Notes under the pieces: model-generated
What the model saw: only the letters and a program-made list of their open reading frames with translations
The model's database searches: none
What the model was told of the DNA's origin: nothing
Shown: positions 1,724-8,946 of the stretch, piece by piece
Numbering within the stretch: position 1 is the first letter of the stretch
Layout: each line of letters starts with the position of its first letter
Assembly: GCA_964388265.1 (NCBI GenBank)
Contig: CAYLXZ010000028.1
Location: 1 to 8,998 of the forward strand
Source of the DNA: Candidatus Micrarchaeota archaeon
GTDB taxonomy: Archaea; B1Sed10-29
Length of the DNA: 8,998 bases
Direction: 5' to 3'
Program-made: the position numbers and the translations under genes

Positions 1724-2119
1724 TTAATCTACCTTGAATTTATGCCCGTAGGCTATTACTCCTTCTTCACTGCTGTTTACCTTTCTGAAAACTTTCTTTA
1801 CTTTTTTCCCTATCTCTATCTCACTTTCATCGGAGTCCACTATCTGTGCGAACACGGTGACTTCGTTTTCCAGTTCTATGAGCCCTATATAGTAGGGTGT
1901 TTCGTCTTCGAAGTCCTTGTGAGCTGCGTGTATCTGTGAGTAGCTCTTTATCTTTCCCGTCCTAGGCATCTCTTTGTCCTCTAGTTTTCCTTTTCTCCTG
2001 CAGTTCGGGCAGATCTTTCTCTTTGGATAGAAGTCTTCTCCGCAGTTCTTACAGTGATTTCCTTCTAGCCTGTATCTTTCTGGGTATTTTCTCCAGTTCA
2101 ATGGTATTGCTTCTTTCAT
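1724..2119 (-). CDS. DUF35 family Zn-ribbon + OB-fold protein (scaffold of the archaeal thiolase/HMG-CoA synthase complex)
   Basis: CKNC and CPNC zinc ribbon in 'RYRLEGNHCKNCG..FYP.RKICPNC', OB-fold C-terminus ending 'YGHKF'. Abuts the thiolase gene, with SD AGGTGAT upstream. Confidence 0.93.
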   Translation of the reverse strand: MKEAIPLNWRKYPERYRLEGNHCKNCGEDFYPKRKICPNCRRKGKLEDKEMPRTGKIKSYSQIHAAHKDFEDETPYYIGLIELENEVTVFAQIVDSDESEIEIGKKVKKVFRKVNSSEEGVIAYGHKFKVD

Positions 2120-3289
2120 TTAATCACCTTTTTTGAGTAGATGTACTACTGCGCTAGCTCCGCTTCCTCCTACGTTGTGTGTTAAACCTATTTCAGGGTC
2201 CTTCACCTGTCTTTCTCCGGCTTTGCCTGTGAGTTGCTTGTAGGCCTCTACTGCTTGTGCTACTCCTGTTGCTCCTACAGGGTGTCCTTTTGCTTTTAAT
2301 CCTCCAGAGGGATTTATTGGTATCTTTCCATCTCTCTTGGTTTCTCCTTTTTCCACTGCTTCTGCTGCTTTTCCTTTCTTGTAGAATCCTAGGTCTTCCA
2401 TTGCCATTATTTCTGCTATTGTGAAGCAGTCGTGTACTTCAGCAAAGTCAACATCGCTTGGCTTTAAATCTGTTTCTTTGTATGCTTTTTCACTTGCTCT
2501 CTCCGTTGCTTTGAGCTTTGTTATTGATTCTCGGTTTGCTAGGTCCAGTGTGTCGCTGGCTTGGCTGGATGCCGTTATCTCTATGTATTCTCTTCCTTCT
2601 TCCTCAGCTTTTTCTTTAGTTGTAAGTGTCACTGCGGCTGCTCCGTCCGTTAATGGAGAGCAGTCGTATAATTTTAGAGGAGTAGCTACTTTTGGTGACT
2701 TCATGACTGAATCTATGGAGATTTCTCTTTGGAACTGCGCGTACGGGTTCTTTGCTCCGTTCTCATGGTTCTTCACGGCTACCTGTGCCAGTTGTTTCTC
2801 TGTGGTTCCATATTTCTCCATGTGTTTCCTTGCCATTAATGCGTATATTCCTGCGAATGTTCCTCCGTTGAATATCTCGGTTTCTTGGTCTCCTGCTCCT
2901 CCGAGTGCGAAGTTCGCTCTTCCTGTGGAGACGTCTATCATTTTTTCTCCGCCTCCTACCACGACTAGGTCGTGTTCTCCTGAGGCTACGGATAGGTAAC
3001 CTGTTCTTAGTGCAGTTCCTCCTGAGGCGCAGGCTGACTCTACTCGAGTCGATGGTATTGGGTTCAGTCCTACTTGGTCGGCTACGAGTGCTCCTATGTG
3101 CTCTTGTCCTATTAGTCTTCCTGATGCCATGCACCCTGTGTATAGGGCGTCTATCTCGTCTCCTTTTATCTCGCTTTCTTTAACTGCTTTTACTCCTGCT
3201 TCGGCTATGAGGTCTTTGAAGCTTTCTTCCCATCTTTCTCCGAACTCTGTTAGTCCTGTTCCGATTATCACGACTTTTCTATCGTTCAT
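2120..3289 (-). CDS. Acetyl-CoA acetyltransferase (acetoacetyl-CoA thiolase, archaeal/SCP2-like type)
   Basis: Catalytic Cys in 'VESACASG'; motifs 'DCSPLTDGAAA', 'EVHDCF', 'GHPVGATG', 'HNVGG'. ATGA overlap with HMG-CoA synthase and SD GGAGG. Confidence 0.96.
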   Translation of the reverse strand: MNDRKVVIIGTGLTEFGERWEESFKDLIAEAGVKAVKESEIKGDEIDALYTGCMASGRLIGQEHIGALVADQVGLNPIPSTRVESACASGGTALRTGYLSVASGEHDLVVVGGGEKMIDVSTGRANFALGGAGDQETEIFNGGTFAGIYALMARKHMEKYGTTEKQLAQVAVKNHENGAKNPYAQFQREISIDSVMKSPKVATPLKLYDCSPLTDGAAAVTLTTKEKAEEEGREYIEITASSQASDTLDLANRESITKLKATERASEKAYKETDLKPSDVDFAEVHDCFTIAEIMAMEDLGFYKKGKAAEAVEKGETKRDGKIPINPSGGLKAKGHPVGATGVAQAVEAYKQLTGKAGERQVKDPEIGLTHNVGGSGASAVVHLLKKGD

Positions 3290-4329
3290 TCGTGAACCTC
3301 CTTTAGTTTGTTCATGTATCTGGCGTAGGTTCCGTAGTCCACGTACTTTTTTTCGTCTATCTTGTCTTGTAGTGTTTCCTCAGGTTTTGAGTCTGTTATC
3401 TGCGGTTTTGTTTCTATTAGGAAGGAGTCACTTCCTGCTCCGCTTCCGTAGGATGTTAGCATTATTCTTTGGTTTGGTTTTGCTTGATCCAGGACGTTAG
3501 CTAGGCCTATGAAGGTTGCGGCGGAGTACGTGTTACCTATCTGTGGTGTGATTAATCCTGGTTTTATTTTCTCTAGTGGTATGTCTAGTTTTTTACCTGC
3601 TTTCAATGGGAATTTTCCGTTTGGTTGGTGGAATACGAAGTAGTCGAAGTCCTCTTTGTTTAGTCTTGTTTCTTTGAGCAGTTTCTTCGTGGAGTTCAGA
3701 ACGTGTTTGAAGTACGCTGGTTCTCCTGTGAATCTTCCTCCGTGTCTTGGGAACTCTTGAGCTTCTCTTCTCCAGAAGTCAGGTGTGTCCGTGGTATATG
3801 ATACGGTTTCTTTTATCTCAGCTATCTTTCCTTCTTTATCTAGCACTACGGTTCCGGCTCCACATCCTGCGCTGTATTCCAGGGCGTTATTTGGGCTGGA
3901 TTGGGAAGTGTCGGTTCCAATTGCCATTCCTTTCTCTATTTGTCCGCTGTTTATCATTCCCATTAGTGCTTGGATTCCTGCTGTTCCGGCTTTGCATGCG
4001 AACTCGAGGTCAGCTCCGGTTAGGTCTGGAGTTGCTCCGATTGCTTCTGCTACTATCCCTGCTGTTGGTTTCACTGCGTAGGGTGGGCTTTCGCTTCCCA
4101 CATAGATTGCCTGTATTTCCTCTGGGTTTATTGAGTTTGTTTTTATGGCTTCTCTTGCTGCTTCTACTGCTAGTGTCGCGCTGTCTTCATCGTGGTGTCT
4201 TACGGTTTTTTCCCGGATATTAAGACTTTTCTTCATTGTTTCTGGGTTTTCTCCCCATTGTCTGGCTATTTCTTCTGCTTTTATCCTTCTCAGTGGTATT
4301 GAGGTACCGTATGAGTTTATTCCTACCAT
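3286..4329 (-). CDS. Hydroxymethylglutaryl-CoA synthase, archaeal type
   Basis: Motifs 'GSESPPYAVKP', catalytic 'EFACKAGT', 'DTPDFWRR', 'RFTGEPAYFKH', 'FHQPNGKFP', 'GNTYS', 'SYGSGAGSD'. Clustered with thiolase and DUF35. Confidence 0.97.
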   Translation of the reverse strand: MVGINSYGTSIPLRRIKAEEIARQWGENPETMKKSLNIREKTVRHHDEDSATLAVEAAREAIKTNSINPEEIQAIYVGSESPPYAVKPTAGIVAEAIGATPDLTGADLEFACKAGTAGIQALMGMINSGQIEKGMAIGTDTSQSSPNNALEYSAGCGAGTVVLDKEGKIAEIKETVSYTTDTPDFWRREAQEFPRHGGRFTGEPAYFKHVLNSTKKLLKETRLNKEDFDYFVFHQPNGKFPLKAGKKLDIPLEKIKPGLITPQIGNTYSAATFIGLANVLDQAKPNQRIMLTSYGSGAGSDSFLIETKPQITDSKPEETLQDKIDEKKYVDYGTYARYMNKLKEVHE

Positions 4330-4611: not shown

Positions 4612-7600
4612 ATGAGTAAAATACAGAGAATAGAAAAAAGAGACGGTGAAGTAGTACCGTTCGACAAATCAAAGATCACAAACGCTATATACGCAGCGGC
4701 GAAATCAGTGGGAGAAGAAAGCAAGAAAGCATGCAAAGACCTAGCTGACGTAGTTACAAAGGAACTAGAAAGAAGATACGAAGACAAAAAAAGAGAACTA
4801 CCCGACGTAGAGGAAATACAGAACCTAGTAGAAGAAGTACTGATGGAAAAAGCACATCCAAAAACAGCTAAAGCTTACATCCGATACAGACAACAACACG
4901 AAAACATAAGACAGATAAGCAGGTTCATAGAAGACGTTACACTCGTAGAAGACTACCTTAATAGAGACGACTGGGAAGTAAAGGAAAACGCGAACATGAG
5001 CTACTCTTTACAAGGGCTAAACAACTACTTAAGCGAAAAAGTAATCAGGAAATACTGGCTAAAGAAAATCTATCCTCAACAAGTACAAAATGCACACGAA
5101 GACGGAAAGTTCCATATCCACGACCTAGGAGTACTAGGACCATACTGCGTGGGATGGGACCTAAAAGACTTCCTGAAATCCGGGTTCGAAGGAGTAAGAG
5201 GAAAAATAGAGACAAAAGCCCCAAAACACCTTGACGCAGCACTAGGGCAACTAGTAAACCTACTCTACACACTACAAGGAGAAGCAGCAGGAGCACAAGC
5301 AGTATCAAACCTAGATACCATGATGGCTCCATTCATAGCGTACGATGACCTAAGCAGAAGAGAAGTAGAACAAGCATTAGAATCATGGGTATTCAACATG
5401 AATGTGCCAACAAGAGTAGGGTTCCAAACACCATTCACCAACGTGACAATGGATTTAACAGTTCCAAAGAGCCTAGAAGACGAGCCAGTGATCATAGGAG
5501 GAGAAGAACAAGATAAAACCTACGGGGACTTCCAAGAAGAGATGGACATGTTCAACGAAGTGTTCGCAGAGATAATGATGAAAGGAGACGCAAAAGGAAG
5601 ACCATTCACCTTCCCAATACCAACCTATAACATAACCAATGACTTCGACTGGGACAAAGAAACACTAGATCCAGTATGGGAGATGACAGCAAAGTACGGA
5701 ATACCATACTTCGCGAACTTCATCAACTCAGACATGGAAGCGGACGACGCAAGAAGCATGTGTCCCATAGATGGGGAAGAGAAAGTACTCATAAAATCCT
5801 CCAGAGGAAGAGAACTAGAATACAGTAAAATTAGAAATATCTATGAAGGAAATTCCAAACAAGAAGAATACGAAATCTTCAGCGATGGAAAATTCGTTAA
5901 AGGAGAATTCAACAAATTCAAGAACCAGGAAATGGTTAAAGTAACTTTAGAGAACAACCATGAGCTTAAAATGACGAAAGAACACTTAAACTTCATATTA
6001 AGAGATAGAAACAGTGAAATGGAAGAACTAAAAGGGAAAGAACTGAAAGAAGGAATGTATCTCCCCTATTCCCAGAAAAAATATGAAGGAAGAGAAAAAA
6101 GCAATAAAGAAATGGGTTACTTCATAGGAGCCTTTGCAGGTGATGGATCATTTGATGGAGAAACTACAGTAATCTTCTCTTTAAATAAAAACCAGGAAGA
6201 AGAAGTGGCTGAAGAACTAGCTGACATTGCAAGGAGATATTTCGGTGCCCACACAACCTTAACTCCCCATGAAGAAACCGAGTTGCTCACCCTCAAAGTT
6301 CATTCCCGAGCAGCAGTAGGATTATGCAAAGACTACGTCTCAGGAAAAGAAAGAGAAAAACACTATCGAGCACGGCTCTTTAACACCGGGATTGAATTTA
6401 GAGAAGGGGTAATCGAAGGACACTACGCAACAGATGGAGGAAACAGAAACCGTATATATACTTCTTCTGAAAAGATGGTAGAATCACTTAACATGCTAGC
6501 AGCTACTTTAGGAACAACTACAAGTGTTTACCAAGACGATAGAGAAGGGAGATTAGGTGAAGAACCTAACTACTCCGTGCTCATCTACCAGCTAAACAGA
6601 GATAAATATGGAGAACTATGGTTCAAAAAACACAACAAACTATGGGTGAAAATAAAGTCCATTGAAGACATTCCAAACAACACAGCCTACTGCTTCGAAG
6701 TAAAAAACGATGAACCCATCTTCACAGTAGGTAGTACAGGTATACTCACTCACAACTGCAGGCTCCGACTAGACAAGAGAGAACTAAAGAAAAGAGGAGG
6801 AGGACTATTCGGAGCAGACCCCAAGACAGGGAGCATCGGAGTAGTAACAATCAACATGCCCAGGATAGGGTACGAAGCGGACAATGAAGAAGAGTTCATG
6901 GAGATGCTCGAAGACAGAATGGATCTAGCAAAGAAAAGCCTGAAGATCAAGAGGGAAATCCTAGAAAGACTGACAGAGAAAGGACTGTTCCCATACTCCA
7001 AGTACTACCTCAGAGACATAAAAGAAGGCTACGGAGAGTACTGGAAGAACCACTTCAGCACCATAGGACTGAACGGAATGAACGACGCGCTTCTAAACTT
7101 CATGGACACTAATATAGGGACAGAAGAAGGAAGGAAGTTCGCGGAGAAAGTGCTAGTGAAGATGAGAGAAAAGCTAGCGGACTACCAAGAAGAAACAGGA
7201 GACATATTCAACCTAGAAGCAACACCAGCAGAAGGAACAAGCTACAGGCTAGCAAGAATAGACCAACAAAGATACCCAGACCTAAGAATACACAACCAGG
7301 AAAAATACGGAAGCAAGACACCTTACTACACAAACAGCACACAGCTACCAGTAGGATACACAAACGATCTATTCGAAGCGCTTGACAACCAAGACCCACT
7401 ACAAACCAAATACACTGGAGGAACCGTGTTCCACGGCTTCCTAGGAGAAAAGATGCCGGATAAAGAAGCGACAAAGAGCCTAGTGAAGAAGATAGCTAAC
7501 AACTACGAGCTACCGTACTACACTCTATCCCCAACATTCAGCGTGTGCCCAGAACACGGGTACATACCTGGAGAACACGAATACTGCCCAACATGCGATA

Positions 7601-7653
7601 AAGAACTAATGAATAAAGTTGAAAGCCAAAATGGAGGTGGCGTAGATGGATAA
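4612..7653 (+). CDS. nrdD: Anaerobic (class III) ribonucleoside-triphosphate reductase large subunit with N-terminal ATP-cone; contains an intein; lacks the C-terminal glycyl-radical loop
   Basis: ATP-cone 'IEKRDGEVVPFDKSKITNAI'; motifs 'HIHDL', 'PYCVGW', 'FTFPIPTYN', finger loop RSMC..CRL, 'TGSIGVVTINMPR', 'NLEATPAEG', 'YTGGTVFH'; Zn site CPEH...CPTC. No RxxGY motif before the stop. Confidence 0.97.
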   Translation: MSKIQRIEKRDGEVVPFDKSKITNAIYAAAKSVGEESKKACKDLADVVTKELERRYEDKKRELPDVEEIQNLVEEVLMEKAHPKTAKAYIRYRQQHENIRQISRFIEDVTLVEDYLNRDDWEVKENANMSYSLQGLNNYLSEKVIRKYWLKKIYPQQVQNAHEDGKFHIHDLGVLGPYCVGWDLKDFLKSGFEGVRGKIETKAPKHLDAALGQLVNLLYTLQGEAAGAQAVSNLDTMMAPFIAYDDLSRREVEQALESWVFNMNVPTRVGFQTPFTNVTMDLTVPKSLEDEPVIIGGEEQDKTYGDFQEEMDMFNEVFAEIMMKGDAKGRPFTFPIPTYNITNDFDWDKETLDPVWEMTAKYGIPYFANFINSDMEADDARSMCPIDGEEKVLIKSSRGRELEYSKIRNIYEGNSKQEEYEIFSDGKFVKGEFNKFKNQEMVKVTLENNHELKMTKEHLNFILRDRNSEMEELKGKELKEGMYLPYSQKKYEGREKSNKEMGYFIGAFAGDGSFDGETTVIFSLNKNQEEEVAEELADIARRYFGAHTTLTPHEETELLTLKVHSRAAVGLCKDYVSGKEREKHYRARLFNTGIEFREGVIEGHYATDGGNRNRIYTSSEKMVESLNMLAATLGTTTSVYQDDREGRLGEEPNYSVLIYQLNRDKYGELWFKKHNKLWVKIKSIEDIPNNTAYCFEVKNDEPIFTVGSTGILTHNCRLRLDKRELKKRGGGLFGADPKTGSIGVVTINMPRIGYEADNEEEFMEMLEDRMDLAKKSLKIKREILERLTEKGLFPYSKYYLRDIKEGYGEYWKNHFSTIGLNGMNDALLNFMDTNIGTEEGRKFAEKVLVKMREKLADYQEETGDIFNLEATPAEGTSYRLARIDQQRYPDLRIHNQEKYGSKTPYYTNSTQLPVGYTNDLFEALDNQDPLQTKYTGGTVFHGFLGEKMPDKEATKSLVKKIANNYELPYYTLSPTFSVCPEHGYIPGEHEYCPTCDKELMNKVESQNGGGVDG
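5764..6756 (+). mobile_element. Intein with LAGLIDADG homing endonuclease in NrdD (P385-N715, 331 aa; alternatively starts at C384, 5761)
   Basis: Block A-like PIDGEEKVLI; block B TKEH (5974-5985); endonuclease blocks FIGAFAGDGS (6121-6150) and IEGHYATDGG; block F AYCFEV; block G GILTHN followed by Cys+1. Removal restores DARSMC-CRLRLD. Confidence 0.95.
7633..7639 (+). promoter_or_regulatory. Shine-Dalgarno site for the small glycyl-radical gene
   Basis: GGAGGTG ending 6 nt before the ATG at 7646, within the last codons of nrdD. Confidence 0.8.
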
Positions 7654-7798
7654 AGAAGACCTACCTGAAGAAGAAAGAACAAAATGCGAAGTTTACTCAA
7701 GGATAGTCGGGTACCTAAGACCCGTAGAACAATGGAACGAAGGAAAAACCGAGGAGTTCCACAACAGAGAAACCTTTGAAACGAGTATAAACGTATGA
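7646..7798 (+). CDS. Stand-alone NrdD glycyl-radical domain protein, 50 aa (not in the supplied ORF track)
   Basis: Hand translation: MDKEDLPEEERTKCEVYSRIVGYLRPVEQWNEGKTEEFHNRETFETSINV. It contains the NrdD C-terminal signature (CEVYSRIVGYLRP..WN.GK..EF..R), has a strong SD, overlaps nrdD by 8 nt and overlaps nrdG by ATGA. Confidence 0.93.
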   Translation: MDKEDLPEEERTKCEVYSRIVGYLRPVEQWNEGKTEEFHNRETFETSINV

Positions 7799-8481
7799 AG
7801 ATAAGAGGAATAAGAAAAACAACACTGGTGGACTACCCAGGGAAAGTAGCAACCACTATATTCACAGGTAAATGTAACTTCAGGTGTCCTTACTGTCATA
7901 ACCCTACGTTAGTGGAAGAAAAACCTGACACGGACACCATACCTATAGATAAATTCCTCAAGTTTCTAGAGGAGAGAAGAGGGAAACTCGGCGCCGTGTG
8001 CATAACAGGAGGAGAACCCACACTACAACCAGATATAAAGCAATTCATAGAAAAGATAAAAGATAAAGATTACCTAGTGAAACTGGATACCAATGGCTCG
8101 AACCCAGAGAAACTGAAAAAACTATTACCTACAGTGGACTACGTGGCGATGGATATAAAAGCACCCAAGGAAAGATACCAAGAAGTAACCAGGTCCAAGG
8201 TCGATCCGGAGAAAATACAGAGAAGCATAGACTTGATAAAGGAAAGCGATGTAGAATACGAATTTAGAACCACAGTAGCTCCAGATCTACTGGACGAAGG
8301 AGATATGGAAGAAATAGGTAAATGGCTAGATGGATCTAGAAACTACTACATCCAGCAGTTCAGTTCAAAGAACACTCTGGATCCTGATTACCGTGAGAAA
8401 ACTCCTTACCCTGAGGAAAAGCTTGAAGAGATCAAGGAATCCATCGAGAAACACTTTGGAAACTGTGAAATCAGATCCTAG
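7795..8481 (+). CDS. nrdG: Anaerobic RNR activating enzyme (radical SAM)
   Basis: Motifs 'TLVDYPGK', CNFRCPYCHN (CxxxCxxC), 'ITGGEPTL', 'KLDTNGS', 'AMDIK', 'EFRTT'. Operonic with nrdD. Confidence 0.95.
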   Translation: MKIRGIRKTTLVDYPGKVATTIFTGKCNFRCPYCHNPTLVEEKPDTDTIPIDKFLKFLEERRGKLGAVCITGGEPTLQPDIKQFIEKIKDKDYLVKLDTNGSNPEKLKKLLPTVDYVAMDIKAPKERYQEVTRSKVDPEKIQRSIDLIKESDVEYEFRTTVAPDLLDEGDMEEIGKWLDGSRNYYIQQFSSKNTLDPDYREKTPYPEEKLEEIKESIEKHFGNCEIRS

Positions 8482-8535: not shown

Positions 8536-8946
8536 ATGGAAGACTGTCTGTTCTGCCAGATAATTAAGGGAAAGAAACCAAGCCATAAGGTATACGAAGA
8601 CGAAGATGTCTACGCGTTTCTAGATATAAACCCAAAAGTCAAGGGACACACGCTTGTAGTGCCTAAGGAACACAGCGAGACGTTCTTGGATCTAGATTCA
8701 TCTCAGATAGATACATTATTCGAGTCCGTACAAAAAATAGCTAAAGGAATCACTGAAACAGTTAATGCAGAAGGATTCAACTTAATGCAGAACAATGGAA
8801 GAGCAGCAGGACAGGTTGTTGACCACGTACACGTACACATACTTCCAAGAAAACAAGACGATGGCCTGGACATGGAATGGAGTTATGAGCCTGAAGGAGA
8901 ATTCCAAGAACTTAAGAAAGAGATTAAAAACTCAATTGAATCTTAA
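8536..8946 (+). CDS. hit: HIT (histidine triad) family nucleotide hydrolase, Hint-like
   Basis: N-terminal 'DCLFCQI', 'AFLDINP..GHTLVVPKEH', 'AGQVVDHVHVHILPR' (HxHxHxx triad). Confidence 0.95.
   Translation: MEDCLFCQIIKGKKPSHKVYEDEDVYAFLDINPKVKGHTLVVPKEHSETFLDLDSSQIDTLFESVQKIAKGITETVNAEGFNLMQNNGRAAGQVVDHVHVHILPRKQDDGLDMEWSYEPEGEFQELKKEIKNSIES

Follow-up and report, generated by a model that had tools for sequence, protein, structure and literature searches.

The window analysed here, an 8,998-nt stretch of Candidatus Micrarchaeota DNA (contig CAYLXZ010000028.1, assembly GCA_964388265.1), carries on its plus strand three consecutive genes of a class III ribonucleotide reductase (RNR): nrdD (4612..7653), a small open reading frame (ORF) of 50 codons (7646..7798) and nrdG (7795..8481). 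The large ORF encodes a 1013-aa precursor with ATP cone, NxN flap, barrel, MC|CR finger loop and Zn site, and it was identified as a class III NrdD by its matches to NF006126 (1003.5 bits against a cut-off of 548), TIGR02487 (503.7 against 326.35) and PF13597 (585 bits). Its cysteines C179, C384 and C716 occupy invariant columns in 86 aligned sequences, the last two being invariant also in intein-free homologues. A one-chain NrdD is defined by a radical Gly on the barrel chain. No RxxGY motif was found by a regular-expression search of the 1013-aa ORF, which stops at 7653, 18 residues past the Zn site CPEH...CPTC. This site of the glycyl-radical domain (7546..7596; Cys979, His982, Cys992 and Cys995) is on the large chain and presumably binds the metal; in the alignment C979 and C992 are invariant, and H982 and C995 are conserved in at least 90% of the sequences.

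The Gly loop is found instead on the small ORF, which lies in the +1 frame relative to nrdD and overlaps it by 8 nt. Its product contains the loop, YSRIVGY, with Gly22 encoded by GGG at 7709-7711, and the C-terminal tail. A Shine-Dalgarno (SD)-like GGAGGTG (7633..7639) is situated within the last nrdD codons, 6 nt before the ATG (7646-7648), a TAG stop in the frame of the small ORF (7643..7645) directly precedes that ATG, and the small ORF overlaps nrdG in an ATGA (7795-7798). These elements had been proposed in a first-pass annotation made from the sequence alone, and a re-check found each of them, with all coordinates given there, to be correct. The adjoining nrdG encodes a 228-aa radical S-adenosylmethionine activase of the NrdG2 type (TIGR02495, 204.7 bits against a cut-off of 131.15). 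Since the PF13597 match (562 positions) ends at position 530 in the large ORF and resumes at 531 in the small one, where it runs to 562, the two ORFs are exactly complementary, and all catalytic residues are kept in the alignment across core and peptide. Within Pfam and NCBIfam the peptide matches only NrdD models (Pfam: PF13597), and its R19, G22 and Y23 are invariant in 120 sequences. The five closest short homologues, of 50-51 aa, share 78-86% identity with the peptide across 98-100% of its length; their scores of 87-94 bits compare with 62 for the best longer or fused protein. Comparison with a genome of the same family (G002) gave synonymous (pS) and nonsynonymous (pN) differences of 0.45 and 0.12 for the peptide and of 0.56 and 0.10 for the core, indicating purifying selection on both. 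AlphaFold gave no confident fold for the peptide alone (predicted local distance difference test, pLDDT, 63; predicted TM-score 0.23), and a sequence search of the PDB found the Gly loop only on chains of 651-743 residues.

The core gene is interrupted by a 331-aa LAGLIDADG intein (5764..6756, residues 385-715) inserted between finger-loop Cys384 and Cys716, so that an intact MCCR finger loop depends on intein splicing. The first-pass annotation spoke of a subunit of ~680 aa; this size applies after removal of the intein (682 aa) and not to the protein as encoded (1013 aa). The intein starts with Pro rather than Cys, ends His-Asn, and matches PF14890 and, weakly, PF14528. It has a Cys in block F and a Thr before the His-Asn and lacks the block-B Trp; by motif reading it agrees with two of the three class 3 (WCT) positions. 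The same intein is present in G002, and none was found in a genome of the same class (G029), where the core has 681 aa and the peptide 52.

The 190 cellular loci that we sorted by layout came from relatives (30), from species genomes (the best 80 of 598) and from metagenomes (the best 80 of 552). Fused genes were found at 104 of them and split genes at 60, and at the other 26 no core adjoined the peptide; removal of one duplicate and one probable indel (L050) reduced the split set to 58. The 58 split loci comprised all three frame offsets (24, 17 and 17 loci), their core-stop-to-motif distance ranged from -41 to 868 nt, and nrdG came next in 48 of them. An SD-like element and a start codon preceded the peptide in 51/58 split loci and in 6/104 fused controls, the search windows of the two sets being similar but not identical. 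The nrdD/small-ORF/nrdG triplets that the first-pass annotation had suggested searching for were thus found widely, usually with the break after the Zn site; split loci occur in archaea, Patescibacteria, Elusimicrobiota, Chloroflexota, Bipolaricaulota and Halanaerobium. In another archaeal phylum, sampled evenly, 67 of 151 genomes gave a match, and 21 had the loop in a short frame by hand count; the phylum of G039 comprised only 3 genomes. Three loci (L017, L019 and L020) are broken within the Zn site itself, the core ending in CPY(x) and the peptide beginning with MC, and the fourth Zn ligand is there probably a Cys of the peptide. In four fused NrdDs (L010, L047, L116 and L155) a linker of 15-22 aa occupies the split site; these, three of which have the split-type CD-x-E tail, are possible re-fusions or intermediates. 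AlphaFold predicted the natural fusion L155 with a pLDDT of 88 and a fold like those of known NrdDs (E ~1e-30).

A tree of the cores (94 rows, with 6 short rows omitted) was used to follow the split through evolution. The split label changes 12 times on this tree, and at least five of the changes are forced by well-supported branches. A single origin of the split was rejected: the approximately unbiased (AU) test excluded one split clade with p=3e-32, in a set of 87 rows from which six long branches and one duplicate had been removed and in which gain and loss were indistinguishable. Given the 12 state changes and the result of the AU test, fission, re-fusion or both occurred repeatedly.

The same layout is present in finished genomes of cultured bacteria. 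Matches were found in 156 plasmid records, and the three loci examined were all split: Sulfuricurvum kujiense pSULKU01, Aquabacterium olei pTB101 and Cupriavidus necator H16 pHG1. Each has three coding sequences (CDSs) in the order core, peptide, nrdG, with the break after the Zn site as in the window. The C. necator H16 core (676 aa, 76.2 kDa) is without RxxGY and is 46-48% identical to the exteins of the window, while RVMGY is on a 66-aa ORF (H16_RS32675) with its own SD. At the three loci RefSeq has both CDSs by automatic annotation, those of H16 being WP_011154155.1 and WP_011154154.1. The caution of the first-pass annotation about novelty was justified, as the layout is widespread and both CDSs are already in RefSeq. 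A 1999 paper reportedly proposed Gly650 as the radical site; residue 650 of the C. necator H16 core falls in the Zn motif. NrdDG of C. necator H16 has been reported to be essential for complete denitrification (PMC2864759), and this requirement is the best available sign that a split enzyme works in vivo. In citing the H16 genetics, that paper names NrdDG and no third component (PMC2864759).

On sequence grounds, the break between nrdD and the peptide gene is a genuine gene split and not an indel or a frameshift. The first-pass annotation had argued against a sequencing indel, and this is borne out by 58 distinct split loci, by the peptide genes' own SDs and by the finished genomes. In both G002 and G029 the break is at the identical place, with a GGAGG element before the peptide start; the G002 core stops 147 nt ahead of the motif. 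A 30-codon ORF is found between the core and the peptide gene of G002 (L111 3700-3792), with stop/start overlaps on both sides. The two ORFs of the window share an 8-nt overlap, as would suit a single fused NrdD made by programmed frameshifting or read-through, but we regard such a product as very improbable. The frames can be joined only within 7643-7652, the limit being set by the TAG at 7643-7645, and this interval contains no slippery heptamer and no homopolymer longer than 3. Neither a conserved overlap nor a conserved frame nor a slippery site, as expected for programmed frameshifting, was found; all three frame offsets occur, gaps reach 868 nt, core and peptide are unlinked in some genomes, and the two have separate SDs. 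There is likewise hardly any probability left for a sequencing indel, or for a decaying pseudogene in a nucleotide-scavenging symbiont. The genome is a metagenome assembly and L050 is a probable indel artefact among the relatives; against this stand the five short homologues described above, which are independent, the identical split in G002 and G029, a pN far below pS, and finished genomes that carry the split. Judged from these sequences, the indel or pseudogene explanation is largely refuted already. One contig bridging the junction aligned with 0 gaps; it is possibly the source of this DNA, and hence not independent.

Core and peptide are not always neighbours. A truncated core and the peptide are separated by 6.8 kb in G067 and by 1.6 kb in G069, and the peptide also occurs by itself in viruses. 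Among the best 80 of 466 viral loci, 71 had the peptide alone, 9 had a fused NrdD and none had a linked split. The 71 lone peptides comprised 53 distinct cores, with RxxGY in all of them and the Zn motif absent in 69, and nrdG was present in 0/71 of these loci. When whole viral records were searched, the peptide was in 5/5 the only PF13597 match and no NrdD core was found, three of the records being at least 90% complete; its neighbours, in 5/5 loci scanned, were phage genes including replication and recombination functions. Two viral contigs each have two different lone-peptide copies ~10.5 kb apart (L222/L268 and L223/L272). GenBank phages gave two matches to the window peptide and none to the H16 peptide, so the lone peptide is barely visible in cultured phages. 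The separated cores and peptides of G067 and G069, together with the lone viral peptides, point to action in trans.

A further arrangement combines an intact NrdD with a second Gly domain bearing two CxxC motifs, either adjacent (L108-L110) or elsewhere in the genome (G066, G068 and G070; loci L033, L055 and L088). These Zn-bearing domains are the best candidates for true spare parts, and the closest analogues of GrcA, the spare part of pyruvate formate-lyase (PFL). The stand-alone Gly domains, including that of the archaeal virus ANMV-1, are 80-145 aa long; AJP62049.1 of ANMV-1 is a 144-aa CDS of comparable size among unrelated genes.

We conclude that the window very probably encodes a class III RNR that has undergone fission, with the body and the Zn site on nrdD and the loop and tail on the 50-aa gene, and that the products likely assemble in trans. 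The survey of split loci, the separate SDs and the finished genomes support the three-component enzyme envisaged by the first-pass annotation. In published structures of the one-chain enzyme (PMC11226230), the glycyl-radical domain consists of a Zn site, a buried Gly loop and a tail with few specific core contacts, and the network of the NxN flap is contacted by the Tyr next to the Gly and by an Arg further on. Herein, we propose the following process for the split form. The intein would splice out and restore the MCCR finger loop, and the small ORF would use its own SD, with translation coupled to nrdD and nrdG. The CEVYSR strand of the peptide would then dock beside the Zn hairpin, and the RIVGY loop would enter the barrel, as in one-chain enzymes. 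NrdG2 would install the radical on Gly22, probably that of the docked peptide, because the Zn site remains on the large chain; the radical would then pass to the finger-loop Cys and on to the substrate. No covalent bond would hold the peptide to the core, so that its exchange is conceivable.

Several points weigh against this three-component enzyme. Because the intein starts with Pro and is without the class 3 block-B Trp, splicing of this copy has to be assumed. In the L155 model the linker is predicted with confidence (pLDDT ~89, residues 681-700), and so does not speak for a flexible joint at the break. The classified loci were picked as best matches to short peptides, which biases them toward split forms. 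Finally, with the host genome at 82% completeness, a further RNR may have escaped the assembly. In favour of the three-component enzyme, a search of this 82% complete assembly found neither a class I/II RNR nor any Gly loop besides that of the 50-aa ORF. The peptide would accordingly be an obligate subunit and not a spare for an intact enzyme.

Next, we considered why the gene is split. The first-pass annotation had proposed a three-component RNR with a replaceable cartridge; the three components are supported, while for the purpose of the cartridge the evidence goes both ways. The split may be kept because the peptide is cheap and exchangeable, so that, when O2 cuts it at Gly22, the pieces would dissociate and a fresh peptide would restore the 682-aa core. 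We put this forward tentatively. It accords with the lone peptide in 71/80 viral loci, the second Zn-bearing Gly domains beside intact NrdDs (L108-L110, G066, G068 and G070), the presence of split loci in oxygen-exposed bacteria, and the precedent of YfiD and phage T4 Y06I for PFL (PMC8683613). In the host genome, however, the gene is single-copy and operon-coupled 1:1, and the split is also found in Halanaerobium (L074), a strict anaerobe. Oxygen-handling markers, moreover, are not enriched in split genomes. They were compared between 30 short-frame and 50 long-frame archaeal genomes, a weak test, as kin are non-independent and the genomes incomplete: no enrichment was found for Fe/Mn-superoxide dismutase (3 vs 5, p=1), superoxide reductase (19 vs 24, p=0.25) or class I/II RNR (5 vs 13, p=0.41). 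Short-frame genomes were counted by eye; G092, G116 and G157 (ambiguous frames), G168 (contig end) and G009, G017 and G028 (weak short hits) were omitted, and G016 and G025, each with a fused copy besides a weak short-frame match, were placed among the long-frame genomes. Among the 30 short-frame genomes, 25 yielded no class I/II RNR, which is consistent with a functional split enzyme.

The unenriched markers speak also for a neutral fission, in which a break at this site is tolerated, core and peptide stay together permanently at 1:1, and fission and re-fusion alternate by drift. The 12 label changes on the core tree, the rejection of one split clade and the fused forms with 15-22-aa linkers (L010, L047, L116 and L155) suit such drift. 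It poorly explains, however, the intact lone Gly peptides of phages (RxxGY in 71/71) and the extra Gly domains beside intact enzymes, and we consider it conceivable but somewhat doubtful. Both drift and an exchangeable cartridge are compatible with the three-component enzyme. It is unlikely, in our estimate, that the split instead eases activation or control, either by making the loop easier to reach for the NrdG2, which resembles the PFL activating enzyme (PFL-AE), or by letting peptide supply limit the RNR in a way that phages could exploit. The peptide gene abuts nrdG in 48/58 split loci, PFL-AE can activate a 7-mer loop peptide (PMC13450708), and the viral copies scanned were in 5/5 loci among phage genes with replication and recombination functions; but fused enzymes share the gene order and the activase type, and the Zn site remains on the core. 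Short of an even chance, the 40-70-aa peptide might be an exchangeable cartridge and the first spare-part system outside PFL: cells with the split form would renew the peptide alone once oxygen had damaged it, cells with intact NrdDs would hold Zn-bearing spare domains, and phages of anaerobes would bring bare copies that sustain the deoxynucleoside triphosphates of the host.

The host genome is an archaeal metagenome assembly of 725,682 bases. NrdR was not found in it. A degenerate NrdD paralogue of 586 aa (G000 C1:5724-7484, minus strand) is 25% identical over residues 11-335 and has neither the Gly loop nor evident finger-loop cysteines. Elsewhere in the window, the minus strand carries an ordinary archaeal cluster of HMG-CoA synthase, thiolase and ChsH2/DUF35-type genes (1724-4329), and the plus strand a gene for a HIT protein (8536-8946); the gene order is similar in G002.

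The split form implies that NrdD 'fragments' in databases are in many cases real subunits, and that a radical site is missing from many NrdD entries called 'full-length'. If the split is true but the cartridge role false, RNR architecture and annotation are still corrected. The family offers concrete candidate spare parts in three forms, namely the obligate split, the intact enzyme with an extra domain and the phage-only peptide. C. necator H16 is a tractable, non-pathogenic model that already carries the split form, and a detached Gly loop would allow NrdG activation to be studied on a 50-residue substrate. No description of a split class III RNR was found in the parts of the literature covered (PMC9669993, PMC4390871, PMC13450708, PMC2795772, PMC3019208, PMC4493059, PMC12662201, PMC11226230, PMC9176816, PMC2807308, PMC2864759, PMC12288474, PMC8683613), although supplements of RNR phylogeny papers could mention fragments. 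Those parts describe split RNRs only for class II (PMC9669993) and spare parts only for PFL (PMC13450708, PMC8683613); according to a 2026 review, whether glycyl radical enzymes beyond PFL have spare-part proteins is yet to be determined (PMC13450708).

Among known systems, the closest relatives are the one-chain class III RNRs. The ATP cone, NxN flap, barrel, double-Cys finger loop, Zn site, RxxGY motif and adjacent activase are shared with this group, which includes the enzymes of T. maritima (4COI/4U3E), P. copri (8P23), S. thermophilus (9D3X/9DCA) and phage T4 (1H7A). Unlike in these proteins, the glycyl-radical domain of the window is cut between Zn site and Gly loop, the latter being encoded by a gene of its own. 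A C-terminal part on a separate chain is likewise known from the split class II RNR NrdJa/NrdJb of Pseudomonas aeruginosa (PMC9669993, PMC4520616). Small stand-alone carriers of a radical Gly are found in cells and phages as GrcA/YfiD of E. coli and Y06I of phage T4 (PMC8683613, PMC13450708), and to this extent the analogy with GrcA drawn in the first-pass annotation holds. It is imperfect in that the window peptide belongs to the NrdD family and is not PFL-type, has 50 aa rather than ~127, and has no intact target among what was found in the 82% complete host genome: GrcA repairs an enzyme encoded with its own Gly, whereas the core of the window never has its own. The split enzyme thus belongs in class III RNR, not in the GrcA family.

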